DNA of 63,611 nucleotides, filler included, from Rhizaria sp. SCN 62-66 (GCA_001724265.1; 7 parts of 7 records of this genome joined end to end with filler, not necessarily neighbours in it), one strand, 5' to 3'; shown: positions 22,427 through 53,644, counted from the first letter of the whole stretch. Numbers and translations are program-made. Notes: generated by a model from the sequence alone, not told the origin.

Positions 22427-22463
<37 letters not shown>

Positions 22464-24247: not shown

Positions 24248-27200
24248 ATGTCAGCTTATTACGAACCAACGCTAGATAATCTCGTCAATGAGTTCTCCGG
24301 AGCTTTTAGTCGAGATTTGGTATCCGAAACCTTTATATCTATGAATAGGAATGTCGCCGCCGCCTTTGCTTCTCTCTGTGAATTCTGTGGACATGCTCCT
24401 GACTACGAAGCATTCCGGAGCCGTTCTGCGGCCGCAGCTGCTGCCAATCAACCGCAGCGCAGCCAACATCCACCGGCAGCGCATAACCCCGCGAAACATG
24501 GGTTTAATTTTGACTCGAACGCCCAGGCCTACGTCCCGCAGCACTTACAGCACAATGTCCCCGCCACGAACAACTATTTTAACAGTCAGCCTCAGAATTC
24601 GCCCTACGAATCCAAAAGCCCTCCCGCACACACGAACGTCTCTAATCCCCCGCCAACCGGCTACTTTGCAGCCCACAACATAAATGGCTACTCGGGCTAC
24701 GGTGCAAATCCTGCTGCCAACAGCGCATTTAGTGGATACGGGGTTGCGAACCCTGCTCCGAACAACGGGTATCCTGGCTACGCATCAGTGAATAACGGCT
24801 ACCCGGGCTCCGGTGGTGCCGCCGGCGCCGCCACGAATACTTTTAACGCTCCCTACCACGATCTGCCAAAACAGCACGCCAACCATGGCAATCCCCCCCT
24901 GCTTGCGAGACCAGCCGCCTCGACCGCCGCCGCCCCCACTTGCGCCGCCGCCCCCGCCCCCGCCGTGGACGAGCTCGCGCTAATGCTCGTCGCCTCGTGC
25001 TACCCGCTTGTGTCCCCCACGACGCTTGCGCCCGCGCTGTCCGCGGCCCGCGGCGCGGTCCCCGTCGCGCTGAGCGCGCTGCGGACCGTGCTGGCAACGG
25101 CGTACTCGTTCGACCCCGCCGCCGCGGACGCCGACCTAAGGCTCGCCGCGCTGACCGACGCAGAGGTGCGCGACGCCATGTACATGGTCGCCAACTACGC
25201 GCGCGCCGCGGCCGACCCCGCCGCCGTCACAGTCGCTGATGCCAGCAACAACACCGCCAACGCGAACTCCGGCGGGGGCGGATCCGACAACGACGATGGC
25301 AACGACGGCAACGGTTTCGTCACCAACAACGCCCCCGCTCTCATGGCCAACAACGCAAGTTGCACCAGCAGCAGCGGCAGTAAGGGTAGCAGCGGCGGCG
25401 ATGCCGCCACGCTCGGGTTCCTCACTCCCGCGCCCGTTACCGTGACCGCGTCTGGCCGCTTCGCCGAGCCGGCACAGTGGAGCTCGCAGGACCGCGCCGA
25501 CCACGAGCTTGACGCGCGGCTGAACCGCGAAGATCAAGCCGCGTTCGAGGCCGCAACCCAGAAGCTCATCGCGGAGATGATTGCGGATGACGTGGCCGCC
25601 AGTCCGCACCTCGCCCACGACATCGCCGGCGGCTACGGCAACGGCAACGGCAATAGTAGTAGTCTCAGCAACTCAGGCCTCATTGTCAGCGCGAACGGCG
25701 TTGTGCAGTTGGCACGGACCTTCTCTAGCGGCAACAGCAACAGCGGCGGCAACAACAAGAGCGGAAAGCGCAACGATAACGCCGCCGCCGCCAACGATGA
25801 CGACGACGCTCCGTTCGACGACGGCTACGGCGGCTACGCCAGCGCCGCCGCCGCGGCCCCCCCAGCACCGCGCCGCAAGACGATCGTGACGCTGCGGTTC
25901 AGCGATGGCCCGCGCCACCTGCCGCAGCCTACGTGTCCGTACACGCGCCTGCCGACGCTGGCCGCCACCAACAACAACAACGGCGGCGGTGGCAGCGGCG
26001 GCGGCGACGGCGACGACCTGATCGCGTCCGACGTCGAGGACGCTGTGCGCGCGCACGCACGCCGCTCGCGCCGCAGCAAGAGCGGGGCCGCGGGCGGCGT
26101 CAACGCGAGCTTCGACGACGGTAACGCCGTGCCGTGCTTCCGCGAGCCGCACCACGAGTGCTTCGGCAGCGGCATGTCGCAGCTCTGCGCCGACGGCACG
26201 CTGGCCCGTGCCTACGCCCTGCTCCCGCGGCTGCCGTCGCGCGGCGGGCTGACGGAACCCGCGGAGCCGAAGCTGACCGAGATCCTCGACCGGCTGGCCG
26301 CGCTGTACCCCTTCATCGGCGTCCGCGCCGAGCTGCGCGATCTCTTCGCCGCGGCGTGCTTCAGCACCGTCAACACCGACTTCCTCATCGGCGAGCTCTA
26401 CGGGCCCGAGTGCGCGCTGGCCAACCGGCGCGACGCGGCCGCGGCCGGCGACGGCAAGAAGCAACGCAAGCACGCGCGCGGCGTCGTCAAGGAGTTTGCG
26501 CCCGCGCCTGTGATTGCCTCGCTCTCGGCGGCGCAGGCGGCGTACCGCGCCAAGCACGCCGCGCTGCTGCGGCGCGAACCCGAGTGGGAGGCCGAGCTGC
26601 GCGACACGCCCTGCGGCTACAAGCGCAGCCGCTGGGAGGACGAGCTCCGCCGCCGCTACGCGCTATGGCTAAACGCGTATCTGCCCGCGTCCTACAACGA
26701 CGCGCTCCGTGCCGGCGGCGGCCTCCGCACGCCCCCGCGCCGCAACAGCGCCAGCACCGCTGCCGCCACTGGCGCTGGCGCTGGTGCTGGGATGGGCGAT
26801 GACGACCAGGACGAGCAGCAGCAGCAGCAGCACGACCAGGAGCGGCGCGTGACGTACGTCGGCGGCGGCATGAACGGCCCCGCCGCCGGCGGTCTTGGCC
26901 CGCGGCACTACGGCGCGTCCGTCCGCGAGCGCTACACGGGCGCCGAGGACGAGGAGGGCGGTCCGGGCTCGGGCGGCGCGATGACTGCGCTCGAGCAGCT
27001 GCAGCGGCACAGCGCGAACCTGAGCCGGCTGGCGCACTACGTCGACGAGCACCCGCTCTCGATGCTGTCCGCGCCGGGGGAGCTCGAGCACTGGGAGATC
27101 GCCGGCGCGTTCACCAACTTCCCCGTTCTCGAGACGCTGCTGGCGTCGCGGCTGCGCGTGCGCGTGCTGCCCGACACCGCACCCGCGCCCGCGGCGTATG

Positions 27201-27715
27201 CTGACTGGACGCCCGAGTTCGTGGTGCGTCACAAAGACTTCTTGGAGCAGACGGCCGGCATGGCGATGCACCAAATGCAGCAGCTGACCGAGGCAGAGCG
27301 GCGCCGCGTCGACATCACGCGCAAGAAGATCTACTTCCTCGTCGTCATGCGCGCCGTGCTCAGCCTGCTGCACTCGGATTACTCCGGCGCGCAGCAAGAC
27401 GGCAAGTCCTTCGACGACACCGGAAAGATCGACCTCCACGGCTTCTCCGTGCCGCACGCCATGAGCGCCGTGCACTTTTTCCTTAACCGCTTCGCGAAGC
27501 TGCACGCTATGAGGCAAAAGGTGCCGCGTGAAGTGACATTCCTCGTCGGGCGCGGCTCGCACTCGTTCAACGGGGCGCGGCTACCGCATGCTGTGCGCGA
27601 GCGCGTGGTCTAGATGGGCATCACGTCCGCCGCAAAGTCCTCCGGCAACGCCTTTGTGGTTGTGCCCATGAACGAGCTTGTCAGGGCCGCAAAGAGCTGG
27701 AAGCGAGAACAGTAA
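24248..27715 (+). CDS. CUE-like + PAM2 + Smr-domain protein (Cue2/N4BP2/CID7-like endonuclease); reads through TAG 27611-27613 to TAA 27713-27715
   Basis: N-terminal CUE-like helices and PAM2-like FNFDSNAQAYVP. The Smr domain IDLHGFSV...VGRGSHS...LPHAVRERVV*MG...SGNAFVV has its final strand after the TAG. Confidence 0.85.
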
Positions 27716-30398: not shown

Positions 30399-30802
30399 GT
30401 TGTGAGAGAGATGAGCTATTCTGTGTCAGTGCTCAGTGCGAAAGAAGGCCAAGACTCGAGTGTCTGCTTGTTTGTCTGTTTTCTTGGAAGGATTTACGCC
30501 GCAATTCCCTTGTATAGTTGCAAAAGAAGCTGTGTGGCAAAAGTGAAGACAAGTGTTAAACATGAATGAGCAGTCAAAGTATGAAACAACATACTCTATT
30601 GTAATACATGTGATAAAAGCGCTGGATCTGAAATAAGATTGAGGAAATCGTTTGTGGTCAGACTGGGACACAGCAAAGTCCAAGTGGGTTGAAGACTAGG
30701 AGNNNNNNNNNNNNNNNNNNNNNNNNNNNNNNNNNNNNNNNNNNNNTTAATTAATTAANNNNNNNNNNNNNNNNNNNNNNNNNNNNNNNNNNNNNNNNNN
30801 NN

Positions 30803-33800
30803 TGGCCGCGGCCGCGGCCGCGGCCGCGGCCGCCGCGTCCTGCGCCGCGGCCTCCGTCTCGAGGTTGAGCCGCTCCCAGGCCAGGGCCTCGTTGAACGCG
30901 TGGGGCAGGAAGAGGGCGGCGGAGGACGTCACTGCCTTGTCGAGCAGCGTCGTCAGCAGCGACGACGACGAGGATGAAGCCAGCGGCGGGACAGGACTGC
31001 CGTCGGCAGCAGCGCTCGCCCCACCCGCAGCTCCGGCTGAGGAAGCTGGCGAATCAGCTGAGTTCACAGCAGCAGCAGCGGAGGACGAGTCGCTAGCTGC
31101 AGCAGCGGTCAGGCCAGCGCCAGCGGTGGTGGCAGGGGACTCACCTGCCGCGCTCGCAGTCGCGCTCGCATCAGCCGCCGCAGCCGTCTTGCCAGTGTCG
31201 CCGCCAGTCGCCGCCGCGCCCGCGCCCGCGCCCGCGCCCAAGGGCGGCGCAGTCACGAACCCTGTCGCCGAGGACACAGCAGTGGCATTGGCCGCTTTGG
31301 CGACGGCGGCGAGCGCCGTGGTGATGACCTTGTGCAGCGTGAGGCGCCACACGCTGACCTGCTCGCCCAGGTCGCTGCCAACGCTCGTGCCCGTGTGCAG
31401 ACTGGCGAACTTGCCGCCCGTGGCGCCCCACACGCCGCCGCCGCTGGCGCCCGCAGAGACGACGGCGATGCGCGACGCCTTGGACACCGACTGCCGCCAG
31501 TGCTCGGCGCGCGCGCGCTCCTCACTGCCCTTGTCACTGCCGCCGGCGACACTGCCAGTGCCAGCGCCGGCACCGTTAGCGGCGGCGGCAGCGGCGTTGG
31601 CAGCAGCAGTGGTCGTGAGCGCGGCGGCGGCGGCGACGGCGGCGGCGGCGGTCTCCGCGGCCGCCACGGTCGCGGCCGAGGCGGGCGGCGGGAAGAGCGG
31701 CAGCAGCGCGGGGCGCGACCAGGCCTTGTTCTCGCCGAACAGCCACGCGGGCGCCGCGGTGCGCGTGAGCGACCCCACGCCATGCGACGGGCGCGGCAGC
31801 TCCGCCAGCGCCTCCGCGGCCGCGGCGGCCACCTCGGCGGCCTCAGGTGACGCCGGCGGGGCCAGCGTCTTGAGCGCGCGCGGCGGCAGCGGCACGTAAG
31901 ACGGCGGCGTGGACGACGGCGAGGGCGACGGGATGCGCGAGTACGTCGTGTCGGACAGCGCGGCGGCCGCGAAGCCGGCGCGGCCGATCATGTCGCGCGC
32001 CTGCAGCATCGCCTGCGCGCGCGCGCTGTAGGTGATCACGGCCACGGGCCCGCTGCTGCCGCTGCCGTCGCCCGCGCTCACGCCCGCGCCCGCGCTGGCG
32101 GATAGCGCGACGGTCGAGCTGGAGACTGCGCTGGCGCTGCCGTCGGCGCCAGCGCCAGCGGCCTGCGCGCGCGGCTCGGCCGTGGCGGCGCCGGCGCAGG
32201 GCACCTCGTGCGCCGCGCCCCAGGGCTGGTACAGCGCGTTGAGGAACGGCGCTAGCGCGCCCGAGCCGGCCGTGAGCGGCAGCGCGGCGAGCCCGCCGGT
32301 GCCGTGGAGCTCGATGTGGAGGCGCGCGACGACGACGGCGGCGGGCAGCGGCGACGCCGACTGGCACAACGACTGCAGGTATGCAGGGCCCTGCAGGTGC
32401 GGCGGCGCGGGTACCAAGGCGGCGGCGCGCGCGGCTGCGGTGAGGTGCGAGGGCGGGGACGAGGACGGCACGGAGGGCGGCGGCGGGCGGCGCGGGGACG
32501 GCGTCGCCGGGTCCCACTGCTGCGGAGACACCACCAGCGGCGTTGACGCTGACGCGAACACCACTGAGTGAGGATCGCGCAAGCAAGGAAAAACACAACA
32601 AAGAAACATGAGATTTAAAAGATAGAAATAGAACTAAGTTATATTCAGAGTGATTTTTTGTTTTTGTGCCGAAAATAGAATCGCTTGTAGCGTACCTGCG
32701 CCGAAGTTAGGAAGCGCCTTGTTGTCTTTGACGAGCTTTGAGTAGACGAGCCAGGGCCAGGAGCTTGCGTCAGTCGCCCCGCCCGCGGGCTCGGCGGCCG
32801 CGCCGGGCCACAGCGGCACCACGGGGGGTGCGCCCGCGGCCGCGGCGGCGGGTTCGAACGCCCAGGGACCGGGACACGCGCCGCCGCTGTCGCTGCCATC
32901 CTTGCCTGTGCCCGAGGGCAGCCAGCGCGGCCAGCGCAGCGCGCCCGCGGCGTGAGCGTAGCGCGCGGAGCCCAGCAGACTGAGCAGCGAGCCGTTGGCG
33001 TGGCGCGGGTACTTGTCGTCCGTGTTCCACGCCAGCCCGCGCGCGCCCCCGGCACCGGCCCCTGTGCCAGCGGCGGCTTGTCCGGCGGCGGCGGCGGCGG
33101 GGTCGGTCCAGCGGCCCTGGAGCTCTGCGACGGTGAGCGGGTGGCGCGCCAGGTCCAGCACCGCGCGCACGCGCGGGTGCGCGGCGCGCGCGGCCTCTGC
33201 GCCCAGCGTCGCCGACAGTGATGCCAGCGCGGGGTACGGCGCGCCCGCGGCGACAGAGGCCGAGGCGGCAGCGGCGGCGGCGGCGCAGGCCGCGGCGGAG
33301 GCAGCGGTCGCTGCGTTGGCGCTGTATGGCGGCGTCTCGGCAACGATGCGCGACGAAAAGCCGAACGCGGCGGCGGCGGCGGCGGCGGCGGTGGCAGCGG
33401 CGGCGGCGGAGGACTTGCTGAGGGCGTCGTAGCCGTGGCCGTCGCCGTGGCCGTGGCCGTCGCCGTGGCCGTCGCCGCCGTCGTCGCCGTGGCCGTGGCC
33501 GTCGACGTGGGAGCGGCTGCGGCGCGCGAGGGCAATCGCGCTCACGATGGCGGCCGCGGCGTCGGCGGGCGCGACCGACACGGTGCCGTTGACCGACACG
33601 TACCACAGCTCGTTCGCCTTGCTCGCCTTTGCGGCCTTGCGACTGGCCGTCGCCTCCGCCGTCGCCGTGGTGTCCGCCGCGGGAGTCGCCGCAGAGTCGG
33701 TCTCGGCGTCGGGCGCGGGTGCGGGCGCGTTGAGCAGCGAGCGCAGCGCCGGGCTGGAGGCAAGCACGCGCACGCGGCTCCACGTTGCGGCGCCGGCCCC

Positions 33801-34742
33801 GCCCCCGGCCCCGGCGGCCTCGGCGGCCTCGGCGGCGCGCTGCACCGAGGCGCTGAAGGACGAAAAGAAGGACGACGACGCGGCCGCTGCGGCCGCCGCG
33901 CTGGCCGCCGCCGCGGTGGCCGAGGAGGAGGACACGGCGCCCGCAACGCCGCCGCGCGTGACGAGCACGCTGGCCATGGTGAGCGGCAGGAAGAAGTCCG
34001 CGCCGTGGGCGTAGGCTCGAGCGGCCAGCGCGGCGTGGTGCGCGTGGATGCCCTCGGACGGGCCGCGGAAGCAGTGCCAGTCCACGGCCACCGACGGCGA
34101 CGCCACGGCCAGCGCGGGCGCCGTCTCCAGCTCGACCCACGCGCCCTGCTGCGGCTGCTGCGCGCCGTTACTGTGGCTGCTGTCAATGTCATCGTTGCCG
34201 TTGCCGTTGCTGGCGGGCGCGACGACGGAGATGACGACGCGCTTGCGGCGCCACTCGTTGAGCACGCGGCGCAGCAGCGCAGCAAAGGCCTTGCGGCGCG
34301 TCTCCAGGTCGAAAAGCGGGTCCTCTTGCTCAAAACCCAGGTAGAGTGTGTAGCTGAAGCGCGCGTCAAGCGAGGCAAGCAGCGCGGGCAGCGACGTCGT
34401 GAGGAACGGGTGCGAGGCCGTCGGCGCGGACGAGGGAAACCCGGCAGACGTAAGCGGGATCAACAGTGCGAAGTTGAGCCGGGGCGCGAAGCGGAGCGGC
34501 GCTGAAGAGTTTGCGCTGTTGCTAAGCACGTTGCTCGGGAGCGCAGACCGAGATGACAACAGAAACCGCTGTTGTTGCTGTTGTTGTTGCTGGTCTTTGC
34601 CCGCAGCAGCCCCAGTCGCACTGCTGCTGCCGCCGGCGCCGCTGCCAGAGTTGTTGCGGAGCAGCAGCGCGGCGTCGTAGGCGGCGCGACCCACCCAGAC
34701 GTCTGCGAGCTGCGGTGGCACCTGCGCCCACCTGCCCGCCCG

Positions 34743-34781
<39 letters not shown>

Positions 34782-35552
34782 AACGCCAGAAGCACCAGCA
34801 GCAGCAGCGGCAGCGGCGGCAGAGGGCGAGTGATCGAACGCGTAGGGCGAGTCGTGCACCGGGGCGAGGTGGCGCGGCGCGTGGGCCTTGCTGGCACCGG
34901 CAGCGCCGCGCAGCAGCAGCGCGGCGAGCGCGGGCAGGCGGCGCAGTTGCGAGAGCAGCGCCTCGCCGGGCAAAACGGCGGCCACGGCAGAGGCCTTGGC
35001 GGGGCGGATGTGTTTGGGCGGCGTGATGGCGAGGTGGTGCACTGCCGGGGAGAGTGCCGTCGGCAGCCGCGGGTTGCCGAGGTCGAGCCAGACGCCAGAG
35101 ATGCTGGCGTCGTAGACGAAGAGCAGTGCCGCAATCAGCAGCGTAAAGATGACGATGATGGGCAGCGACGTCGCGCGCTGTAGCACGTGGCGAAACACGG
35201 CCTCGAGCGGGGACGCAGGCGGGCGCGTAGCGAAGCCGAAGATGCCGCTGCCGTCGCCACCGCCGCCGATGCTGCCGCCGCCGTTGACGCTGCCGCGGGA
35301 GGAAATCGAGCCGGAGCGGCGCAGGTACGCGGAACGCGTGTAACCGTCGTCGTCGCCGTCAATGTCAGCGTCAGCGGGAAGAGCGGACGCGTATGAAGCG
35401 CGGGCGTCGTAGGCGTGGAAAGCGTCATCGCCGCCACCGTTGGTTGCATCGTCGTTGCCAGCTCCATCCCTGCTGCCGTTAGAACGAGACGGGCTGGTAG
35501 GAAACATCCGGCGTCGTGGAGAATCTGAATCGAGCCCAAACCTGGATAACAT
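30803..35552 (-). CDS. Type II membrane glycosyltransferase-like protein with large Ala/Gly insertions; 2 exons (35552-32696, 32563-gap), 3'-truncated
   Basis: Phase-1 intron 32695-32564 (GTACGC...CTCAG) joins the 972- and 620-aa ORFs. N-terminal TM (PIIVIFTLLIAALLFVY); GT-A-like blocks FALLIPLTS, YTLYLGFEQEDPLFD, LAARAYAHGADFF, LPNFGAV. Confidence 0.65.
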
Positions 35553-36269
35553 CGTGGGGTTTAGACTCTAAGGGGGCGCTGTGGAGACGGGCTCTAGACG
35601 CGAGCGCTCGTTTGCTTCGTCAGGTGTTGGTCTGAGTTGGACGAAAGTGTCTCTGTTGAAAGGATTTTCAAGGGTTTGAAGAAGTGTCTAAGAATTATAT
35701 TATAGAAACACATCGAGAATAATCATAAACACAACTTTATCCACTATATCCGGCTGTTATACGACGTTGCACTCATTCTTAGACGAGTGCTCTCGGCACT
35801 TGCTATGCGTTTGTGGTCCACCCCCCAGACTGTTGGCTGGGGGGACGAGAGGTCAGGATGATAAGGTCATCTATAGATTGACCGTTAACTCGACATTTGT
35901 TGATAGCTTTGAGTTTTAACTCACTATTTGGATATCATACCTAAAGGCGACACTTCATCTGCTGTCATAAAGACCGGTACCCGGAGAGGTGAGCTTCCAT
36001 CCACAAAAGGACCGACCCCTTGTTTGTTCGTTGCACATTACGATGGATTTCACGACATTAAGAATGTCCAATGCGAATCGCTTCTCCAAATGTTATACGA
36101 GCAAAATGATTTTGTGCTAATCCCCCAGTTGACTCTTGGCGTGCTCAATTCAATCTCACCGTATTTGCTGCATCACCTATAACCCTCGCATCACTGAAGA
36201 TATCCAAACAAGTCTCCTGGAAGACTTATCTACTCCGTCTCGGTTGTTCTACGCAGACCTCTGTCGGTC

Positions 36270-39094
36270 ATGTCACGCTCTGCTGTTGAATCCAAGGGCT
36301 CTGCGGGTTTTCGCTGTGTGTTGAGCCTTCCGCAGGCCTCTGCACTCCAGCACTCTCTCCTTCGGGCGCACTTACTCGCTCCGGATCTTCTCGCGCCCGG
36401 CGACTGCGCCGCCACGGCCGCGCAAGACCCAGCGTTTGCGGCCACTCTCGACTACATTTAGTCCCGGCCCTCACAGTCCTCGTCGCTTTCGTTCTCAGCT
36501 CGTGCCAGCGCGCATGTCAACAGCGACACCAGCTTCGGCGCCGACTCCGACGCCGACGCCGGCAAGGTCGACGACGGCTTGGCCGTGTTCCGCAAGTAGC
36601 GCGTGGTGACGGTGGGCAGCAGGCGCGATACCATGATGTCCATTATTACTTTCTTCGCCGACACCCGACGCGACGGCGCGAAGGAAGCTCTGCGGCGCGC
36701 CGTCGACGCCGCCGCCAAGCACGCCGCCGCCAAGCACGCCGCCGCCGTTGCGGCCGATGTTCGGTCCAATCATGATGTGTCCTCGTCGTCGGGCACAGTG
36801 ACGCTGGCTACCGGGACCATCAATTTTGCGCTCGGCGACGACAAAGCCAGGGACAAGGAGTAGGCGATGAAGCGTGTGACGCGGACTAAGGCGGCTGCAG
36901 CCGAGGCCGCCGAGGCCGCCGCTTCGTGTGCCAAAGAAATCGCCGCGGCCGCGGACGCCATTGCGGCGTACTCCCCTTTTTACCACGCACTGCCTCGCAA
37001 CAACTCAAACAACAACAACAACAACGACAGCAGCAACAACAGCAGCAACAACAACAGCAGCGACGGCAACGGCAACGGCAACAGTGCAAGCGGCGCGAAC
37101 GCGGCCGGGATCAGCGGTATCGACGTCGTGAGCTCTCTCTTGCTCACGATGATGGCCTCGCCGCAGTCGCTCACGCGCGCTCAACGCTGCGCAGTGGTCG
37201 TGCGCGGCGGCCGCGTCTATGTCACGGGCGCGCACGCCCGCAGTCTGCTCTGCGGTGCGCGCGCCGGTCACAGCTCCAGCTCCAGCTCCAGCTCCAGCTC
37301 TAGCTCTGGCTCCAGCTCTAGCTCTGGCTCTAACTCTAACCTGGGCTCTGACGCCTGTGCCGGTGCCGGCGCGAGCGCGAGCGCGGCTGAGCAGTGCGCG
37401 GCCGCCGAGAGCCACGTGGCGAGTCTGCTGCAGGATACGATCACCTGCAACTGGGGCTTGGCCAGCGCCAACGACGAGTCTGAATATGACAACTGCGCCC
37501 TCAGCAGCGACTGCGAACCAGACTGCGACGGTGGCGCTGGCGCTGCCGCTGCCAGGGCCCGCGCCTGTGCGAGCATGAACGCCGCGGACAGCGAGGGCGA
37601 GGGCGAGGGCGTGGCCGATGGTCAGCGGGGGCGAGAAGGCGATGCCGCGAGCCCAGACGCTGTTGCGACTGTCGCCGCCGTCGCTGCGCAGGCTCAGCCT
37701 GGCACGCGTGCCGCCGACGGCGCTGGACGCGCGGTATGCGTCGAGGCGCCCGACTTCACCGTATCTTAGTGGCTCACCCTGGTGCTCGCCCAGCAGTCGC
37801 AGGCGCAACCACAAGAGGAAATGCAGAGTTTACTCGCATCGACAAAGTTTACTCTGACTGCGACAGCGCCCTTTGCTCCCAGCTCAGCTTTTGCGGTCTC
37901 GCACGCCTCCGTCTTCGCTCTGGACCCGGTCGCTGCTCTCAGCCCCGTCCCTCTGCAGCCGCTGGCCCCGTCGCGGGCCGGTCCCGCGCATCTGACTGTG
38001 AACACCGGCGGCGACGACTCAACCCACGCCATGTCCGTGCCCGACTTCAGGGCCCTGCTCTAGCGCTCGGTCTTGATGGAGATGCCGGCGACGCAGACGC
38101 CGCTGGCCGTGGCGCGCTCGCCCTCGATGGCAGCCTCGCGCCACCTCAACGTCAACTCGAGGTTCTTTCCCCACGGGCCGTAGGGCTAGCCGCCGTCGCC
38201 CCGGTGCCAATCCTGCAGCCGCGAGGCCAATGTCGTCAGCGGCCCGATGGACGTTCTGATGTTGGCGGAGAAGTCCGACCTCAGCCCGAGGTTCGACCTC
38301 GGCCAGACTAGCCACGACAGCGCGGCCGCGCTCAGGACTTCACGGCACACCGCCGACGCACTGCTCGCGGTTACTGCCCGGCTGTGTCACCGCTTTCAGG
38401 CGGCCAAGGCGGCCCGAGAGGCAACGGCCAAGACTGCGCGCGACGCGGCGCGGGCGTCTGTCAAGTTCGTGGGCTGTCTCACACCGACCGTGAGGGACGT
38501 CAACGAGGTGCTGCAGTCGCTGCTCTCAGCCACCGCGGAGCTCGTGCCCCCCGCGCTCGCCTCCGCCTCGGCTGCGGCGTCAACGTCTCACGCTGGTGTG
38601 GATGCGAGCACGAGAGACTGCGCCAGTGCAAGCGCGCTCTTGCGCGCGCTAGAGCTGCAGAAAGGTTCGGACAAGATAATGGCGCGAGCGCTGTCAGACG
38701 AGCTCGCCCGCAGCGACTTGTCGTGGTTGCAGCTGCAGGCGCACCTGCCCGAGAGGGCCCTGGACGTGGCCTCTGCCGACGCCGACGCCGACGCTGGTCC
38801 CGATGTTGGCCTGGACGCGCCGAACCACAAGGAAGGCGTCATCAAGAAGCACATTGAGGTGCCTGCGAGTCTATTCGTGCAGCAAGCGCTTGAGAGCAAG
38901 AGCAAGAGCAAGAGCGAGAGCGAGAGTGCGGGCGCCGACGTGCCTTAGGGCGGGGCCCCTCCTGACTGCGAGCGCGTCAGCAGCGTCGGCCACGAGCAGC
39001 AGGGCGCCGGCGTGCGCAAGGACGAGGGTAAGGGCGAAGGCGAAGGCGAGGGCGAGGGCGAGGGCGAGGGCGAGGGCGAGGGCGAGGGCGAGGG
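36270..39094 (+). CDS. Low-complexity hypothetical protein of at least 940 codons, one frame with 8 internal TAG codons; runs into the gap, 5' end uncertain
   Basis: Track ORFs 36270, 36603, 36867, 37782 and 38247 share one frame. They are separated only by TAG (36459, 36597, 36861, 37767, 38061, 38181, 38187, 38946), with no TAA or TGA. Confidence 0.75.
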
Positions 39095-39194
39095 NNNNNN
39101 NNNNNNNNNNNNNNNNNNNNNNNNNNNNNNNNNNNNNNTTAATTAATTAANNNNNNNNNNNNNNNNNNNNNNNNNNNNNNNNNNNNNNNNNNNN

Positions 39195-39752
39195 AGCAAG
39201 CGTATTTGTGATCGCTTGCTCGTTTGGTTCGCTGCCATCTAGGTCTGCGTTCACGGATGCGCTAGCGGTCGCACTTGTGAAAGGCCAGACGGGACGTGAC
39301 ACCAGGAGTCGACCGAGGCGTGTGATACTCGGCGCATCCGTGGCACCAGTCATGCTCGCAAGTGTGTTTTGCGTCCTCGCTAGAACCTCATGTTCTTGCT
39401 TGGTGCGCTGTGACAGAAAGAGCCGCAGTTGCCTCGCCAGCGCTGACAGGGGAGCACAAGCTTGGGATGAATACTGCGCTGTTGTGGCTGAGAGTGTGGT
39501 CAGTTTGGCCTGGGTCTGCGTGTGTAAGGCTTCAGTGAGCACAGTCTCATCCTTGAGTTGCTGCGCCAGTGTGGCAATGCGCGGGGTGAGTGTGGCAGCG
39601 TGAGAGCGGAGCTCAGCATGCTTGGCGGCAACAGTGCTGATGGTGTGCTATTTGTGTTCGCCGTTAAGGAGGACACAATGACCACAGACAACCTTAACGC
39701 ACAGGTCGCACCAGTAAAGCATAAGCACGGGCTCGCCATGCTTGTAGCAATA
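39195..39752 (-). CDS. Exon encoding a B-box type 2 zinc finger + coiled coil (TRIM-like), with TAG 39650-39648 inside the HxxH motif; 3'-truncated, upstream exons unresolved
   Basis: Manual translation gives YCYKHGEPVLMLYWCDLCVKVVCGHCVLLNGEHK*HTISTVAAKHAELRSHAATLTPRIATLAQQLKDE, preceded by a pyrimidine-rich ...GTGTTAG acceptor. Confidence 0.8.
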
Positions 39753-41027
39753 CTAACACATATGATACAAGTATGAATCATAAGAGATAATATGAGTAAG
39801 GATAAATTGATACAGCAAGTTTTTGCATCGAAGAGATATCAAATCCGAGCTTCAGTTGTAGGCTTAATGATAATCGTTTTCGGAGAAGCACGTATAGAAC
39901 ACAGCAGCTTGATGTTGTCGCTGTATGATATCGGCATTCATGATGCTGAGACGTACATTAGGGTCGCGTTGCGCGGACTGGTCGAGAACAGAGACAGCAA
40001 CACCATTTGCAGTACTACCATCGCTGCCACGGCTGTTGCCCTTGCCTGGTGGAGTGTGACCATGGTGGGCGGACGAGACGACCTCGTCTTGCAGTTTACT
40101 TTCGGCCTGTGGCAGGAGAAGTGGTGAAGCAACATCAATGCTTATCAGTTAGTGAGCTTTGCATTAGTTGAGAGGCAGTTGTTGTCTATTCGATGCAATG
40201 ATATTGAAGTTTGAGAGTGAGTTGATACAGAGAAAGGTGAATTTGCAAAATATTGAGAGCGAGCACGAAGAGTCGTAACGCTGCAATTACCTTGAAGCAA
40301 GCTTGACAAAGACTTCGGGGGCAACCTTTGCCTGCGAATTGAATTGTTTTGCCACATGTCTTGCAGCTCGACACTCGTGATGTCATGGTGGGTGCCTAGT
40401 CAAAGCGCAACATGCGAAACAATGCAACTGGTTGCGAAGGTGAGAGAGGCGAAGGACGGCTTCAGGAAAATTGGTCCGTCGCAACCCAAAGTATCGAGTA
40501 TCTTAAAGCGCAATAAACAGAATATAGTAGGCACATTGGCTTGACCCCGAAGTACTTTACAATAATGTCATCTCATGTCGGCAATGGCACGATAACAACA
40601 TGTTGGTGAAGCGCGTCTCGACGTGCAAGATCTGCTTGAGTTCAAAGAGAGGTAAGGGGCACGCTTCTTGAGAGACTTGCGATGCAACACCACATCATTC
40701 ATCTTGAATAAACAATGTGAGCACACGTCATATTGATGTGGCTGGTTGATATGCTGTTATGCTATGTTTGCACTGCGCAGTAATGCTGAGGAAAAACGCG
40801 TTTCGATTAGCCGGCCCTTGCTTTTCCTGGATTCGATGGGGCCCAGCTGAAATCAGGGCGGTCAGCAGTCGCTCCCGCAATGCAACCCAGACGGCAGAAA
40901 ATGCTGTATTAATATGGCTAATTCTGCATTACATTTGGATTGCCAAATTCATAGCTCTTCGCACACGCACTAGTTCGAAGTGCAACTTTAGCCTTGTCCC
41001 TTCTTGCAGTGACTCGACTGCTGCTGC

Positions 41028-41277
41028 TTACTCCTGGTCCAGGCCAAGCGCCTCAAAGTCACTCTCAAGGTCGTCGGCAGGCTCATTCTCGTCGTCATCA
41101 TCAGCAACTACAGCGGCCGCGTTCGTCTCCTCCTCCTCCTCCATCTCAGCGGCAGAAGTGGCACTCCCCTCCCCGTTCGGCTCGGTCTCGGGGGTGAGGG
41201 CTCGCCGCGCGCGGCCGCCTCAGCGCGCATCGCCTCGCGCAGCCCGGCCAGCGCGGCCAGCGCAATAAACAAGATAC
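41028..41277 (-). CDS. Possible terminal exon of a small acidic protein; needs one extra C in a homopolymer
   Basis: After a TTGCAG acceptor it reads ILFIALAALAGLREAMR...EPSP, then ETEP...EEEE...DDDD...LDQE-TAA in a shifted frame at the C5 run near 41180-41184. Confidence 0.3.
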
Positions 41278-41587
41278 TGCAAGCGCATTAGCTTAACCCT
41301 ATAGTATTTTTTAACAATGTAATCTGACGTCAGCAATGGCACAATATAACATTTGGTGAGCTCGTCTTCTCTCTTTCTCACCCTCAAAGAAGGCTTCATA
41401 GGTTCGTGTTTTGAACACGACCTCTGATTGTTCAATTCGTCTTACCAATATATTATAGATGATTCATTCATCAAATGTGGGTTTCATACGATTTTGCAGA
41501 ATAATATTCTCTACGTGGCTCACACTGACTCTATGATTCGCAAACTCCGTCTTGTCGTTCACGGTGTCTTTCAGAGCACTTTCCAGA

Positions 41588-43285
41588 ATGCCGCTGCCCT
41601 CTGCTGCCGCGCGTATTCTTCTCCGCAGCTCCTCTCGGACTGCCAACGCTCTTGACCTGCGCCCTTTCTCTTCCCTTGCGAACACTGTTGCCAAGAACAC
41701 ACACACTACGCTTCACTGCCTGTCTCAACAGCAGCGCTGCCTCATGACTATTTCAAGCTCTCGCCACCATTCCAACAACGGTGACTCGAACACTTCCCAG
41801 CACTCGCGCTGGACGACCCCATTGGCCAGCGCCCTTTTTGCCGCTGGTTTATCGTCTGTTTTTGCCCTTGCCAGCACCCAGGACGAGCAGCAGCAGCAGC
41901 AGCGGCTGGAGCACGACCTGGCCGAGACCGCCGCGGTGTTGGCCCTGCTGCCTCCGCTGAACCTCGGCGCGCCCATCTCGGACTCGCCCGACGCGGACAG
42001 CGTGGGCGCGGTCGACGAAGACAATTACGACGCGATGTTCGAGACGGAGGAGCAGATGGAGGAGTTCCTCAAAAGTTTGGGCATCAATGAGCAGGAGCTC
42101 GAGGCCTTCGACAACGCCGACGAAGCCACACGCGCCGCCTTTATCGCGTCGCTTCGCGCGCGCCTGTCCTCGGAGAGCATCATGACGGCGCTCTCGCGCG
42201 AGGACGTGGACCGGCCGATCACGATGGCCGACGCTGTGGCTGTGGGAAACCCGGACCTGATCGACTTCCTCATCTCCAAGGGGCACAGCGTCAACGAGCC
42301 CTCGCGCGAGACCACGCTGACGCCGCTCGTCGCCGCTATTGAGGGCAAGAACGTCGCCACTGCTCGCCACCTGCTCTCGCGCGGCGCTGCGGTTAACGCG
42401 CCCACGCTCAACGGGCTGACGCCGCTGTTCCGCGCGCTGCTGGAGCCCGACACGTTGCGGCCGGCGCAGGAGATGGTGCAACTGCTGCTTAAGGCCGGCG
42501 CAGACCCGAACCTGCCCATGCCGGGCTCGGGCGCGCTGCCGCTGCACACGGCTATCCAGCGCTTCTCGCCCGTCTTTGCCGCGATGCTGATCAAGGCGGG
42601 CGCGGGCGTCAACACGCAGGCCCCCGGCACGGGCGAGACGCCTGTGTTTCTGGCGGCTCGTGTTGGCGACACGGCGACGCTGTCGACGCTGCTGAAGCAG
42701 CGCGACGTGCAGGTCGACACGCCCAACGCGGCCGACTTTACGCCGCTGGTCTCGGCGCTGCTTAACCACAACAACGACGTCGCTGGTCTGCTCGTCGCGG
42801 CGGGCGCGGACTTGACCCACGTCAATAAACACGGCGCGAGCCCCGTGTTCGCGGCCGTCATGACTAACAACGCCGCCGCGCTGGCCGCGATGCTGAGCCG
42901 CCGGAGCGCGCCGGTGCCCGCGGACGCCAACGCCGCCGTGCACGGCAAGCCGCTGCTGCAGTGGGCCCTGGAGCGCGGCAACGCAGGCGCCGTGTGGGCC
43001 CTCGCCAAGGCCGGGGCCGACGCGGACGCCCCCTTTGTCGCCGCCGCCGCTGACGGTCCTAGTTCCAGTGGCTCAAGCTCGAGTGCGAGCGCGAGCGCGA
43101 GTGCGCCGGCGCACCAGAGGACTCTGCGCGAGTTCGCCGAGGCGAGTAACGACGTGCTGGCGGACCTGCTGCTGCTGCCCGCGGGCGAGCTGCCAGAGCG
43201 CGCGCCTGTGGCCCTGAGCGACGGCGAGATGGCGGCCTACGTCGCCGAGATTAAGGAGAAGGCGCTTAAGTACAAGAGCAAGTGA
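41588..43285 (+). CDS. Ankyrin-repeat protein with mitochondrial-presequence-like N-terminus and a hydrophobic segment
   Basis: About 8 repeats of TPL..A...G....V.LLL.AGAD.N; Arg/Ser/Leu-rich N-terminus; ends in TGA. Confidence 0.9.
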   Translation: MPLPSAAARILLRSSSRTANALDLRPFSSLANTVAKNTHTTLHCLSQQQRCLMTISSSRHHSNNGDSNTSQHSRWTTPLASALFAAGLSSVFALASTQDEQQQQQRLEHDLAETAAVLALLPPLNLGAPISDSPDADSVGAVDEDNYDAMFETEEQMEEFLKSLGINEQELEAFDNADEATRAAFIASLRARLSSESIMTALSREDVDRPITMADAVAVGNPDLIDFLISKGHSVNEPSRETTLTPLVAAIEGKNVATARHLLSRGAAVNAPTLNGLTPLFRALLEPDTLRPAQEMVQLLLKAGADPNLPMPGSGALPLHTAIQRFSPVFAAMLIKAGAGVNTQAPGTGETPVFLAARVGDTATLSTLLKQRDVQVDTPNAADFTPLVSALLNHNNDVAGLLVAAGADLTHVNKHGASPVFAAVMTNNAAALAAMLSRRSAPVPADANAAVHGKPLLQWALERGNAGAVWALAKAGADADAPFVAAAADGPSSSGSSSSASASASAPAHQRTLREFAEASNDVLADLLLLPAGELPERAPVALSDGEMAAYVAEIKEKALKYKSK

Positions 43286-44927: not shown

Positions 44928-45916
44928 ACTGATGGTGGTTGAACTGGGTTGGCAGAGGAGAAGCGAGCAGAGTTGGGTGAGAAATTTGTGAGAGAGGGGA
45001 GATTGTGCAAGGTATATCATGCAAACGACTAAGATAAGTCAAGTGAGGAGTTATCCAACTATACTACATCACATAGGCGCAGCTTATACATCTTGGATGC
45101 TTTGTTCTGAGACGGAGCAGAGGTGCGTTCCACTCTGATCGTAATGAAGATTCACTCTGTGACCTAGCCGGTGACATTACAGACTCGCAGAGAATTGGGA
45201 TGCGCGAGTGTAGTACCAGTAAAATAAATAAATATCTAAAACGTGTTTGTAAGTCATAGCATTGTGTTATTTCTGTGTTTTTCGATGCTTGTCGGTCGTA
45301 TTTTGAAATCTTAAGCAGGGACGAAAACGAAGGAAACCTGCAAGCGACCGTGAGCAGCCTCGCCTCTCGAAACCATCGCTGCCACAAGCACTTTTTTCTC
45401 TCGTCTCACGGTCAAAATTTGGCAACGGCTCGACGACTTGGCTGGATCGAGCAGCTCTGCGTCGCAGCCCAGGAGGGAAACGCGGACCACGGCGCGCTTC
45501 GCGTTTCTGCATTCTCTATAGCATCGGTTGATTTTCTTATTTATGATCAAGGTGTCACCAAATTTTTAGAGTTTGTTTGCACTTTTTTTCTTGTTGCCTG
45601 ACGTCGTATTTGCTTTCAAAACCACATTTTTTTTGTGTTCATTTGCCGGTTCAACACTCTTCGCCCCCACCTTGGCCCTCACGCTTCCCCCACTCCTGCA
45701 CTCTCCCACCCTTGCCCCACGCTCTGTACACCAGACAACCACAACACCTGTCGCTTTTGGCACCCAGTTTTCTGTGTCTCCGGCGTCGCTCTACAGCTCT
45801 CACCAGCAGTCGCGTCGTCGTGTCCTTGAAAGACCAGCTCACGCAGCCCCCGTCTCGGCTCCCCTTCGGACTCTCGGCTTGTACAGTCCGCAAGCCCACA
45901 CGCAGCAACAGCAACC

Positions 45917-46795
45917 ATGGGAGGCACAAGCACTAGCGGCAGCGGCATCTCCACGGGCCCGCACTCCGTCTCCGTGTCCATTGCCAACACTGCCTCGCAC
46001 TCTCACGCCCACTCGTCGTCGCACTCCGTCTCGGCCGCAGCCGCCCCTGCCGCGCCGTCTGTGCTGTCCAAGATCGCCGCCGTGTGCGCGCCGCAGCTCT
46101 ACGTCTTTATCCTGCTCGAGACCATCTCGGTGCTTACCATTGCCTCGGCCAAGGGCGCCGATGGCCGGCCTGTGTACAACTCGGCGGGCGTAGTGCTCAT
46201 CGCGGAGCTCTTCAAGCTCGGCATCTCAGTCTACGGCGCGTGGGAGGACGACCCCTGGCTGGCGTCCTTCTTCGGCGGCATCAAGTGGCGCAACTTCGCC
46301 ATGTACTCCCTGCCGGCCTTTCTCTACGCCGTGAACAACAACATCTACCTTAAGGTGCTCACAGTCATCCACCCCAGCATCTTCCAGCTCTTCATGAATC
46401 TCCGCGTCGTCTGGACTGGCATCCTCTTCCGCTTCACGCTCGGCCGCACCGTGACGCCCAAGCAGTGGGCCGCCATGCTGCTGCTCTTCACCGGTTGCGC
46501 GCTCACCGTCTACTTTCCCGCGCGCACCCCGACCCCGTCGGGCAGTTCGGCTGGCATCCTACCCCCCGCCGGCGCCGAGTCGCCAGTTGACACTGACGGG
46601 TCCTGGTGGACGACACTCACCACGCTCGTGGTTGTCTTCGCGGGGCTCTTTCTCACGCTCGCCTACACTGTCATCTCCACGGCCGCCAGTGTTATCGGTG
46701 AGGTCCTTCTCAAGTCGACCGACTCGCTCCACGTTGCCAACATCCAGCTATACTTCTTCGGCGTCGTCTTTAACCTCATCGGCATCTTCCTCCAG
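45917..46795 (+). CDS. SLC35A-family nucleotide-sugar transporter, exon 1 (rest beyond the gap)
   Basis: VVLIAELFKL, YSLPAFLYAVNNN, PSIFQLFMNLRVVWTG, QW, NIQLYFFG; splice donor CAG|GTACGA at 46796. Confidence 0.9.
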
Positions 46796-46865
46796 GTACG
46801 AGAGAGCGTATCGCCTCGGCGTAACACGCGATGGAAATCCTTTCATGATCATCTAGTGTAGTTTG

Positions 46866-46868
<3 letters not shown>

Positions 46869-46930
<62 letters not shown>

Positions 46931-46940
46931 TGTGTGTGTG
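46869..46940 (+). repeat. (TG)n microsatellite at the contig end
   Basis: Directly visible. Confidence 0.97.
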
Positions 46941-47979
46941 NNNNNNNNNNNNNNNNNNNNNNNNNNNNNNNNNNNNNNNNNNNNTTAATTAATTAANNNN
47001 NNNNNNNNNNNNNNNNNNNNNNNNNNNNNNNNNNNNNNNNTTTCATTATTAATTACAATTGTTTTATTGAGATCGGCATTTTTAAATCTGAAAATACAAA
47101 ATCAACCACTATCTCTAGAATTTTCGCTCACTATCTGTACAATCGACTGTACTACTGTTACTAGTAGTACGTACTAGTACTAGTACTAGTATGTTGAGAG
47201 GGGACACACGATTGATGTTTGTTGAAGGTGAAAACAGCACTGATCTTAGTAAGACCTCTGCAAGTGGAGAAAAGCGGGGGAGGCACTAGAAATGGCGGTC
47301 ATATCATCCGCCATTGCGCTAGGTACTTTAGTACTAGTACTTTTTGTACAAGGCTCATAACCTGTTAGAGTTAGAGGATCCAAGTCCAGGTGGAAAAGGT
47401 CGATTTGTATTGAGTTATTATAATACAAAAAGTATCATGAATTGCACCAAAGTGGTAACTACCAATTCCATCGGTTTGCTCACAGTCACTTTCCTACTAC
47501 TAGTACGTAGTAACTAACATACTCACCAGGTCACCATGGTCAAGGCGTTTGTGGTGGGAAAGGAAACGAACGTCAACCTTGCTGGGATCATAGGAATTTG
47601 TGTGTAAGGTCATAATGGCAGCATAGAAAGAAAGAGAGCATTGTTATGGTAAATTCATGCTTTTAACAGTATTTGTTTAAATTTGAATATCGGTTGTATG
47701 CGATCTATGAGTGATAGCTTGTTGTTGACCTACCACTTGCGCATGGTGCAGAAACAGGAGGTGTCGAAACGCCGATCGATATTCTCCGTCTTTGTCTTTT
47801 TCATTCCCGCTAATTATAATGTGGTTGCAACTTAACAGTTCTAAATATTAAGCAACTGATTGTTTACACTTGAAAGACACATCTTCTTACCTATCTCGCC
47901 TGTGCCCTTTTTAACCCCCTTGCTCTGGCTTTCGCCTGCTCACAACCCTCGGTTTCTAGTGCTGTGACCGTCACAAACG

Positions 47980-50659: not shown

Positions 50660-51658
50660 AAATAGGAATTCAATTATCATAATAAGTTGTTTTTGTTACT
50701 TTTGTGTGTTATGACTTTCCTTCAAGTTGTTTGTCTTTGTTTGTACGTATTGTTTTGTTATGTTGCTGACCCAGTACGTATCTTAGTTATGCATTTTATG
50801 ACAGTTTTTTTTTTTTAGAAACCCCACCGTAAGGGGCAACCACCGTGATGCACGAGAACGCGTTACCGTTTTCAAAAAATGCGAGATTGTGCGATGTCTC
50901 CATGCTTACTCTCGTTGCGCCACACACCCAATTATACTATCTCTTTGTTTCCGAGCAGTTTCATCGGTACGATCTTCAGTTCAGTTAAAGTACTATATTT
51001 ATTTACAATAAAACTGAAAATATGTGCACTGTAAAGCAGCGGGAAAAAATAACACTAATTTGTGTTCATTATCTTGCTCTACAGTGGAAAAAGTACAGCC
51101 GACTTTTGAGTAACTCATGAGGCTTGCGCAGTACATTGAAGTACCACAACTTAAAAAGAACGGTAATTGTAACAAAACCTCGAATAATATAGTTTCATAA
51201 TAAAATAGTTATCATACCAAATATACATGGCGATTTGAGTCTGCTGAGAGACTCATAATGTAGTCTTTGCGCTCAGTTTGCGACCGTGACCACGAATGGC
51301 GTGACGAACTAGAGTGGTGAGCGTTGCCAGATGATTCCTGTGTATCTATAGACGTGTATCTTCCGTTTAGCCTGAATAAAAGTGTGTTTACATAAATAAT
51401 ATATGCTTTGAAACGTACTTTATACATTATTTTTTCATTAGTCGACAGTTAACACGCCTAATATCCTTTTCGTTTTCCTTACTCGCACTCACCTCTCCTA
51501 GTCAACGTCGTCGCTATTCATTGTTGAAATTCACATTACTAATTAAATTAGAAAACAGAAAATCGCTCGAAATTATTCTAAAAGCGCGTTTCTCTTGATA
51601 CCTTGCAAATTATTTCGTGTTCTATTTATATTTGCGCTTCTATAGGCCTGTTCTAGCC

Positions 51659-53644
51659 ATGCCCACAGGCATGACGAACAAGACGACGTATCGCAGCCTT
51701 CCCAAGGTGCGGCTTTTCTCATCACTATTCGTCCTCATCGGAGTTGCGCTAAGCTTGCCCGTTTGTAAAGCTGCTGCAGAGTAGTGGTACGGCGTCCTTG
51801 GTGCCGGAACAACAACCACACGTCTGCTGCTACACTTGGACCTCACGATCTCTCCTCCCAATGCCACCATCACAAACCTAGACTTCTCCGCCTCCGAGGT
51901 CGCCACTGCCGTTACCTACAATCCCTCTGCAACACCTGCACCTACGCTTTCTTTTAAGCTCGTTTCCTCCTCGTTTTCAGGCGCATTCCCGTCGTCTTCG
52001 CGGCTTGACGGCACTTTGCGTGCCCAGGCCTCGCAACTGCAATGGCCGCTGGAACTGAGCACCGAGGAAAAGTACGTGCCGCCCGCCATCCCTCTCACGG
52101 AGAGCGTATTTCACCAGCGGTTTACTACATCGCGCTTGGTTGCCCTGGGAGCCGGCTGGGCACTCACGGACAAGAAGCCCTCGAGTCTGACTCGTCAGAG
52201 TGAAAGTACGAGTGTTGACTCTTCAGACTCGAGTGTAGCTTCTAGTTCGAGCTCGAGTTCGATTAACCGTGGCTTGCTACATAAGCTCAAGTCTACATCT
52301 GCCCAGCAGATTGCCGCAACACAGCAGCAGACATCTTTTCACGACACTGCATCCAACACTGGTGCTCAACAAAACACTCTGCGCAACTCTCTGCGGAGCT
52401 CGCTGCGCAGCGACATCTTTGTGATCGGTCAACGCGCCGCGGACCCGGCCTCCCGGCCCGTGACTCCTGCGGACCGCTGGCACCTTGGCTCTGTCACTAA
52501 GTCGATCACAGCGACCCTGGCGGCCGTCGTGGTTGAGATGGGTAAACTGCACTGGAACAGCACTGTCGGTGAGATCCTCACACACTTCACAATGCACCCG
52601 GCTTATCGCACCGCGACGGTACTTCAGTTGTTGTCGCACCGGTCAGGGCTGCCGGCCAATATCCCTATGGAAGATCTTAACACTTTCTCGGGGGACCCGT
52701 TGACAACGGCTCAGACACTTAAGGAGCGCGCGCGCATGGCCGCCATCGCGCTCGCCATGGAGCCTGTCGGCCCGGCGGATACTTTCACGGGATACAGTAA
52801 CAATGGCTTTGTCGTTGCCGCGCATATGATCGAAATTGTGCTGAACGACTCATGGGAGGTACGATCTAGTACTACGTACATAAATGCATAATCACATTTC
52901 TTCATGTATATCAACAACTGTTTATCGTAAAAAGTTCACTTTCATATCTAGTTGTGTTAAATTTATTACATTTTGAAGTATCGCTTTATTAAACTGACGT
53001 AAACGTTCAAATGTTTTAATTTTGCTCATCTTTTATTATCATTGCATCTCGTGCCTTTCGTTGTTGTTCTACAGAACCTTATTATGAAGCACATTGCGGC
53101 CCCGCTGGGTTTGCTAAGCATCGGCTTTGGCCCCGCGGGCATTCCTGTGCCGCCTCCTCTTGGCGAGCCTGTCACGGCTGAGAACGCAAAGCAGCCCGTC
53201 GGCCACATTCGCGCCGACTCTGTGCTCACGCCGCTCTATCCGAACTGGGGCGCGATGCCGGACAACCCCGTGGCACTCGGCCCTGCTGGCCGCGCGCACA
53301 TAGACCTGGACGACCTGCTGACGTACCTCATGGCCCACGCCTCGCAGTCCCCTGCGCTGCTACCGCCGAAGCAGTGGGCTGTGCTTCACTCGCCCGTCGG
53401 CGACGGCGAGTTTGCGCTCGGCTGGGCCGTGTCGCCTAGTGGACTGCTCTTACACAGTGGCTCTAATACCCTCAATTTCGCTGAGGTCGCACTTGACCTC
53501 AAGCGCGGAGCTGTTGCGGCAGTCGTGAGCAACGACGCCTCAAGTCAAGGCACCATTGATGACACGATCGCGTCGGCGCTGCAAGCCGCATACGCCGCGC
53601 GCGCGCTCGCGGACAACGCTGCCATTGCTGCAGGAAGCAACTAA
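51659..53644 (+). CDS. Secreted beta-lactamase-related (class C-like) serine hydrolase, 589 aa; 2 exons (51659-52858, 53075-53644); TAG at 51782
   Basis: Signal peptide LFSSLFVLIGVALSLPVCKA, then E*WYGVL...RLLLHL. Catalytic motifs GSVTKS (SxxK), LLSHRSGL, YSN, HSGSN. Intron GTACGA...TACAG; ends in TAA. Confidence 0.88.

Follow-up and report, generated by a model that had tools for sequence, protein, structure and literature searches.

An in-frame TAG inside a predicted B-box zinc finger, probably a rare sense codon, in an uncultured wastewater eukaryote

Introduction

The locus described here raises one question: does a TAG codon lying in frame between the last two histidines of a zinc-binding motif end the protein, or is it translated? 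The codon (39650-39648, minus strand) lies in a 63,611-base stretch of DNA, here called the window. A previous reading made from the sequence alone (the sequence-only reading) placed the codon inside a B-box and held that termination there would destroy the domain. This holds, as a stop would remove the last zinc ligand together with more than 800 downstream codons, counted with the overlapping public protein P0017. In the available text of two reports (PMC5304391, PMC11687900), UAG-only nuclear reassignments belong to a handful of protist lineages, all with abundant in-frame UAG.

The Window and Its Source

The window consisted of seven contigs of 7.2-10.9 kb each, joined by six N44-TTAATTAATTAA-N44 spacers at 9821-9920, 19676-19775, 30703-30802, 39095-39194, 46941-47040, and 54286-54385. 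Because seven separate contigs were joined, ORFs and other features across the spacers are artefacts. The multi-gene argument for a sense TAG takes the seven contigs as those of one organism. The public runs containing the window were bioreactor, wastewater, activated-sludge, and biofilm metagenomes. Exons rich in GC, GT-AG introns that were AT-rich and about 200 nt long, and proteins of low complexity marked a eukaryotic origin.

In the window and six paralogous loci (L001-L006, see below), together about 90 kb, ARAGORN found no tRNA genes of any kind, and so none with a CUA anticodon. Rfam gave no match to an rRNA, tRNA, or other Rfam family in the window, and eRF1 was absent from the sequence. 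The P-type ATPase of the window matched only generic ATPase clusters (Atlas).

Gene Structure

The gene containing the TAG was modelled on the minus strand as three exons. Exon 1 (40291..40386) comprised 32 codons from an ATG and contained a short Cys-rich motif (C-x2-C...C-x2-C). It was followed by intron 1 (40107..40290; 184 nt, GTAATT...CACAG, GC 0.41), the 50 codons of exon 2 (39957..40106; AESKLQ...RDPN), where the sole indel among copies was 3 nt, and intron 2 (39753..39956; 204 nt, GTACGT...GTTAG, GC 0.37). Exon 3 (39195..39752) encoded the B-box and a predicted coiled coil and was located at the very edge of contig 5 (39195-46940). Since contig 5 ends at 39195, the exon is truncated there by the contig boundary rather than by the end of the gene; about 690 more codons were present in P0017 and in paralogs. 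Upstream of exon 1, the interval 40387..40846 (minus strand) formed part of a repeated unit common to paralog L005 (blastn). Similarity stopped at 40846, where loose ends were found in three runs.

Exon GC was 0.48-0.58 against 0.37-0.41 in the introns. In a three-copy alignment, indels that were not multiples of three (1, 2, and 4 nt) were confined to introns, and the one exon indel was 3 nt. Introns were about as conserved as exons among the window copy and two paralogs, because the family is young. By inspection a RING was absent: exon 1 contained five Cys in the window copy and four in L004 and L005, not a C3HC4 pattern.

The sequence-only reading had named use of the TAG as a splice acceptor as the result that would overturn it. 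This was ruled out: paralogs whose exons are arranged alike show GAT, GAC, or AAC at this position and no AG. In the poly(A) RNA run X8, no contig covered exon 3, and the sole RNA contig on the B-box gene ran from exon 1 into intron 1, unspliced. Next to the gene, an upstream gene finishes within 40805-41254 (minus strand), which takes in its final exon and 3' end; this gene has an acidic tail and stops at a TAA at 41029-41027. Poly(A) RNA contigs from run X8 covered the stretch, the only one seen here to be transcribed.

The B-Box Motif

Read on the minus strand from 39752, exon 3 began Y-C-YK-H-GEPVLMLYW-C-DL-C-VKVV-C-GH-C-VLLNGE-H-K-TAG-H-TIS. From Cys 39749-39747 to His 39647-39645 this sequence formed a B-box type 2 zinc-finger motif (39645..39749, minus strand), C-x2-H-x9-C-x2-C-x4-C-x2-C-x6-H-x2-H, assigned from a Pfam PF00643 match below cut-off, ligand conservation, and AF2/Foldseek. 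B-box2 ligands follow the spacing C-x2-H-x7-9-C-x2-C/D-x4-C-x2-C-x3-6-H-x2-4-H, and the window motif agrees with this eight-ligand consensus. The minus-strand reading with a full ligand set was confirmed at 39749-39645, as was the position of the TAG just ahead of the last His: the codon (39648..39650, minus strand) separates the seventh and eighth ligands (H-K-TAG-H). All eight Cys/His ligands were unchanged in seven of seven aligned copies, and a regular expression search found the ligand pattern in 19 of 19 rows from 15 distinct relatives.

The sequence-only reading had proposed the Pfam zf-B_box profile as a check, and this was borne out in part. The alignment crossed the TAG (ORF residues 33-73, profile positions 4-41 of 42); the score of the window copy (18.0 bits, E=0.0032) was below the gathering cut-off of 24.1 bits. 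Paralogs scored 21.1, 17.2, and 15.7 bits (E=3.5e-4 to 0.017), all below cut-off and always spanning the HxxH. A family profile compared with PDB sequences matched the TRIM3 B-box best (E=0.095), followed by PML (E=0.54).

The best of five AF2 models of a 60-residue B-box piece had a pLDDT of 80.6, the other four having 41-53. This model contained a helix at residues 41-55, at the end of the modelled piece. Using the AF2 model in Foldseek, 29 of the 39 matches listed were TRIM-family or other B-box structures. The best was TRIM72 7xv2 (E=0.012, TMq 0.71, probability 1.00), and none of the matches listed was at or below 0.001. The matches were almost exclusively B-box2 or B-box-coiled-coil structures of TRIM proteins: TRIM72, TRIM28, TRIM5alpha, TRIM29, MuRF1, and MID1. 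Foldseek aligned the helix following the B-box to the B-box-coiled-coil structures of TRIM5alpha, TRIM28, and TRIM72. From the Pfam alignment, the paralog matches, the TRIM3 match, and the structural models, the domain is accepted as a predicted divergent B-box2 followed by a predicted helix, the coiled coil of the sequence-only reading corresponding to a modelled helix that aligned to TRIM coiled coils. Lacking a RING, it would not amount to a complete TRIM.

A Multi-Copy Family

A metagenome scan revealed the six paralogous loci L001-L006, at 80-90% amino-acid identity. Protein searches yielded 16 relatives, four of which were products of loci among these six. In total, the TAG column was occupied by a residue in 14 further distinct members and by the same TAG in one copy, L005. 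The window copy and L005 are different loci, because similarity ends at 40846. No paralog of the B-box gene was found elsewhere in the window. Paralogs had exon 3 as one uninterrupted exon, 770-900 codons in length. Some 250 residues towards the C-terminus (L003 2206-3045) formed a conserved region with equivalents in L005 and in P0005-P0017. A likeness of this region to cyclophilin was considered and dropped: Pfam gave no match at E up to 0.1, the AF2 model was unusable at a pLDDT of 38, and Atlas gave no match.

The family was mosaic in its similarity pattern. L001 contained an apparent frameshift at ~2560-2870, after ...IVYGEY compared with L003 and L005, and its conserved C-terminus went on in another frame; L001 is probably a dead, frameshifted copy, or else contains an assembly error. 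The family is proposed to be large, recently expanded, and recombining, in an uncultured eukaryote of wastewater and bioreactor communities.

Contigs of the four runs on this stretch were many fragments 90-95% alike, with loose ends at 40846 and 39705. In run X1, contigs with a likeness of at least 90% added up to a depth of 149-795 over 39195-40409 and 102-267 over 40410-40895, and the unique flank from 41214 had a depth of 37. The TAG could on these grounds be a mistake of assembly or consensus calling in a repeat whose copies were collapsed, since the multi-copy repeat was fragmented into ~150-nt contigs in all four runs and the window copy was the minority variant at several nearby positions; alternatively, the mRNA could be corrected by U to C editing. 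Such an artefact or RNA-level correction is very improbable. An independent metagenome assembly (L005) had the same TAG within the same B-box block, P0017 in a third record starts only past the TAG, and a second TAG of the window, in a P-loop gene, also cuts the predicted protein in another record (P0018). There was no sign of an editing system in any result.

A multi-copy family is also a setting in which, under the standard code, the window copy and L005, with a B-box block in common, could have gained a premature TAG, their frames being intact because the changes are recent or were repaired by gene conversion. The depth of 149-795 against 37 in the flank and the existence of at least 14 other distinct members fit such nonsense alleles or pseudogenes. 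So do the L001 frameshift, as a sign that decaying copies exist, and the mosaic pattern, since a dead copy maintained by gene conversion could still look constrained. The codons at the TAG column were GAT in L001, L002, and L003, GAC in L006, AAC in L004, and TAG in L005 and the window copy. With Asp, Asn, Gly, or Lys elsewhere in the column and the TAG two substitutions from GAT, the column likewise agrees with a nonsense change.

The Open Frame Downstream of the TAG

The frame remained open for 151 codons past the TAG, to the contig end at 39195; the other two frames contained five stops each. Among 20000 mononucleotide shuffles, 158 were as open as the 151-codon frame. The public protein P0017 (740 aa) was 100% identical to the window copy over a 52-residue overlap, which included substitutions unique to the window copy, and it contained no stop of any kind. 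From this identity, the window gene continues without a stop. P0017 starts at the first Met past the TAG. Of the 12 TAG-free long ORFs, nine (P0005-P0013) start at a Met within the B-box.

The lineage-specific substitutions of the window copy were four nonsynonymous against nine synonymous (pN/pS 0.15, binomial p=0.0012). Across 800 codons L005 had three in-frame TAGs and was free of TAA, TGA, and frameshifts. Its substitutions (62N:38S) gave a pN/pS of 0.54 (p=0.0025 against neutrality), compared with 0.45 in the intact L003, and the other copies were alike. The window copy and L005 differed at 52 sites, distributed 12/11/29 over the three codon positions. Within the B-box block common to these two copies, 16-18 of 45 nt differed from the other paralogs and the protein was nearly unchanged. 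These patterns point to selection on the protein that would continue downstream of the TAG, a signal that gene conversion from working copies could mimic.

For nonsense alleles, the 4N:9S of the window copy with its 740-residue open continuation is hard to accommodate, as are the 800 codons of L005, in which three TAGs are accompanied by no TAA, TGA, or frameshift and pN/pS is like that of intact copies. On the opposite side, TAGs in the family were concentrated in the window copy and L005, which was counted against a sense reading. TAG-free spans comprised 772 codons in L001 and 484 in L002; L004 contained no TAG in the ~360 codons past the acceptor TAG; and L003 ran for 890 codons without a TAG before a single one, five codons from its end at a conserved TGA. 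The 12 long public ORFs contain no TAG by construction.

Other In-Frame TAGs in the Window

ORFs were bounded by TAA or TGA, which in part builds in the pattern of TAG as the only internal stop, and composition was called sense-like where GC1 exceeded GC2 and GC3 was highest. Several unrelated genes contained in-frame TAGs within or around their domains and remained open past them: the B-box gene, a P-loop gene, a Smr gene, a beta-lactamase-family gene, and a 965-codon ORF.

The P-loop gene (20419-23556, plus strand) was an ORF of 1046 codons with CHAT and AAA_16 (STAND-type NTPase) domains. Its one TAG, at 21655, was directly past the Walker A motif (GKATLV-TAG-YLARRL) and was followed by 633 codons. 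P0018, from another record, is the product of this same ORF, cut exactly at this TAG. Relatives of the P-loop ORF were not found by word-based search, and a full HMMER scan found P0018 alone.

The Smr gene was a long ORF (24209-27712, plus strand) ending in the Smr domain, with a TAG at 27611 within the domain. Aligned to the Smr domain of N4BP2, the match ended just ahead of this TAG, at chain position 62 of 82. Past the TAG, GC3 was 0.79 over a further 33 codons as far as a TAA, beyond which GC fell to 0.34. The sequence-only reading had called the B-box TAG the best single site; this was not upheld, the B-box family being multi-copy and mosaic with one frameshifted member (L001), and the TAGs at 21655 and 27611 are cleaner.

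In the beta-lactamase-family ORF (51599-52888, plus strand) the TAG at 51782 was located between a signal-peptide-like N-terminus and the domain, and the SxxK motif came ahead of the next Met. The low-complexity ORF (36198-39092, plus strand) comprised 965 codons running off its contig end, with eight TAGs, no TAA or TGA, and no Pfam family. In 25 of 31 windows third-position GC peaked in one and the same frame; the other six were at the 5' end and at codons ~331-361 and ~451-571. An Arm-repeat ORF (55176-56675, plus strand) contained a TAG near its N-terminus (55314) and another, 56667, two codons before its TAA. The latter was at an AT-rich composition break and could be a true TAG terminator. 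The TAGs at 55314 and at 49577/49991 were less certain cases. The TAG-bearing ORFs relied on here had GC1 above GC2 and no open frame opposite.

That TAG-only ORFs are antisense artefacts was considered and rejected. Frames antisense to a GC3-rich gene can indeed be interrupted by TAG alone (e.g., 9923-11047, opposite the ATPase), and such frames have GC1 below GC2. A separate stretch, 45830-46939 (plus strand), was part of a nucleotide-sugar transporter gene, whose ORF gives way, at the contig end, to a probable intron and a (TG)n microsatellite. A TAG at 46859 was in the non-coding part of this stretch.

Sense-like ORFs, being defined by TAA/TGA, ended in TAA eight times and in TGA twice. 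Pooled counts were 259 CAG, 90 CAA, and 16 TAG. Six long ORFs totalling 6331 codons contained no TAG: 3225-7406, 14327-17365, 9922-12747, 32637-35567, 41537-43282, and 59246-63514. At the pooled rate of 16 TAG per 349 CAG+CAA, about eight TAGs would be expected in five of these six ORFs, and their absence was counted against a sense reading. Four of the six (3225-7406, 14327-17365, 59246-63514, and 32637-35567, all minus strand) had 977-1423 codons, no stop, and no Pfam match at E up to 0.1; in two of these four, GC3 was 0.53-0.56, much lower than in neighbours on the same contig.

These counts bear on two alternatives. Nonsense alleles under the standard code agree with the many long genes and paralogs without TAG and with TAG being the commonest random nonsense codon here (41-73%). 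Random nonsense mutations would give TAG in 62-73% of cases in GC3-rich genes, and eight TAGs out of eight by the mutation spectrum alone has p ~0.025. Because TAG is the commonest random nonsense codon, the occurrence of TAG only is weaker evidence than it looks. Loss of function in the B-box family nevertheless leaves unexplained the TAGs in at least four unrelated genes on other contigs (P-loop, Smr, beta-lactamase, and the 965-codon ORF), and nonsense alleles or pseudogenes, though the main rival, are considered unlikely. Decoding of the TAG is favoured, because five or more unrelated pseudogenes among about fifteen genes would be improbable.

Second, UAG could be ambiguous or leaky: a terminator at true gene ends and efficiently read through internally, by context-dependent termination or by a weak eRF1 with a near-cognate tRNA, so that less B-box protein would be made. 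This would suit a TAG that is rare and uneven (none in the 6331 codons of the six ORFs, eight in one ORF), the Arm-repeat ORF in which a TAG is followed two codons later by TAA where composition turns AT-rich, and the TAG of L003 five codons ahead of a conserved TGA. In the L003 column, though, Ser is present in both P0006 and P0012, which terminate four codons further on, and the L003 TAG is therefore derived and not an ancestral terminator. The Arm-repeat ORF provided one candidate TAG terminator among about 11 gene ends, and the internal TAGs had no common downstream nucleotide context. Leakiness of this kind is accordingly judged quite improbable, more so than nonsense alleles.

The TAG at 39650-39648 is probably a translated codon within a functional gene. 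The gene would consist of three exons, whose product would start with a short N-terminus rich in Cys and continue with a B-box2, a coiled coil, and an extended tail with a conserved C-terminal region. UAG would serve as a rare sense codon, TAA and TGA would end genes, and the ribosome would read through H-K-TAG-H, completing the predicted zinc site. The motif, the gene model, the family, the open and constrained frame past the TAG, and the in-frame TAGs of other conserved genes have been shown here; we infer all three of the decoding of the codon, its tRNA, and its residue. For the organism as a whole, the odds lean only slightly towards an uncultured, GC-rich, intron-bearing activated-sludge eukaryote at an early or incomplete stage of UAG stop-to-sense change. 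TAG would be a rare sense codon, most likely Gln, found mainly in weakly constrained or multi-copy genes, with TAA the main terminator, and decoding near gene ends may be ambiguous.

Identity of the Encoded Residue

The sequence-only reading had described the TAG column as small or polar and favouring Gln over Leu. Among 14 distinct relatives the column contained seven D, three N, three G, one K, and no Q or L, and TRIM3, the best PDB sequence match, has E. The column does tolerate small or polar residues (D/N/G/K). The preference for Gln over Leu found no support at this site, with both absent from all 14 relatives and E in TRIM3: because the column is variable, and polar or small, the B-box site cannot identify the residue.

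The family had four TAG columns, that of the B-box included. The second TAG of L005 was aligned with CAG in five of six paralogs and GAG in one. Its third TAG was aligned with CAG in the closest paralog and with CTG or CTT in three others. The terminal TAG of L003 was aligned with Ser in three relatives. The second and third L005 TAGs lean to Gln and away from Leu, as judged from the aligned codons. They would fit simple C-to-T nonsense changes equally well, each being one C-to-T step from a paralog CAG, which is a further point for nonsense alleles. If UAG is a sense codon, Gln is fairly likely to be its meaning, as suggested by TAG sites other than that in the B-box.

Comparison With Known Systems

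According to the available text of PMC5304391, UAG alone was reassigned to Gln in Iotanema spirale and to Leu in the rhizarian exLh. In that of PMC11687900, phyllopharyngean ciliates reassigned UAG to Leu, and to Gln twice; the Gln-type ciliates were Hartmannula sinica and Trochilia petrani. No described wastewater eukaryote with a reassigned UAG was found in the literature searched.

The window resembled Iotanema, Hartmannula, and Trochilia (NCBI table 15 type) in that TAG alone occurred in frame, ORFs were bounded by TAA (mostly) or TGA, and two L005 TAGs were at CAG. It differed from these Gln-type systems in several respects: with all counts pooled, TAG accounted for some 4% of putative Gln codons, and within the B-box family for roughly 1% or less; TAG was absent from many long genes; and the genome was GC-rich with GT-AG introns of roughly 200 nt.

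Likeness to exLh and to an uncultivated phyllopharyngean lineage, both with Leu, would lie in reassignment of UAG alone and in UAA as the dominant terminator. In the available text of PMC5304391, half of the exLh ribosomal-protein sequences were without UAG, so that its UAG use was uneven between gene classes, parallel to the window. The same text gives 384 UAGs in 71 exLh genes, and UAG was thus frequent there, whereas it was rare here. Unlike the Leu systems, the window and its family had no TAG column at a conserved Leu: the B-box column was D/N/G/K, and a single L005 site was Leu in certain paralogs, the closest ones having Gln.

If the preferred reading of UAG as a rare sense codon is true, the organism would add a new lineage to those with UAG-only reassignment, seen at a stage when the codon is still scarce. 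Rare and uneven in-frame UAG would then be a chance to see stop codon capture. It could address which genes first accept the codon, whether UAG termination persists, and in which order tRNA and release-factor changes occur. Standard gene callers split such genes, as seen in the fragments P0017 and P0018, and protein catalogues of wastewater metagenomes would therefore misrepresent the organism.

Compared with animal TRIM/RBCC proteins (TRIM72, TRIM28, TRIM5alpha, and TRIM3), the family differed in having no RING, exon 1 encoding only a short C-x2-C...C-x2-C motif, a Pfam score below threshold, and a C-terminal region that matched no Pfam family. Lineage-specific TRIM expansions are multi-copy and fast-evolving, as is the family here, and a large, recombining B-box/coiled-coil family in a protist would be of interest for the origin of TRIM-like proteins. 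As in these animal proteins, an eight-ligand B-box2 ran straight into a long predicted helix.
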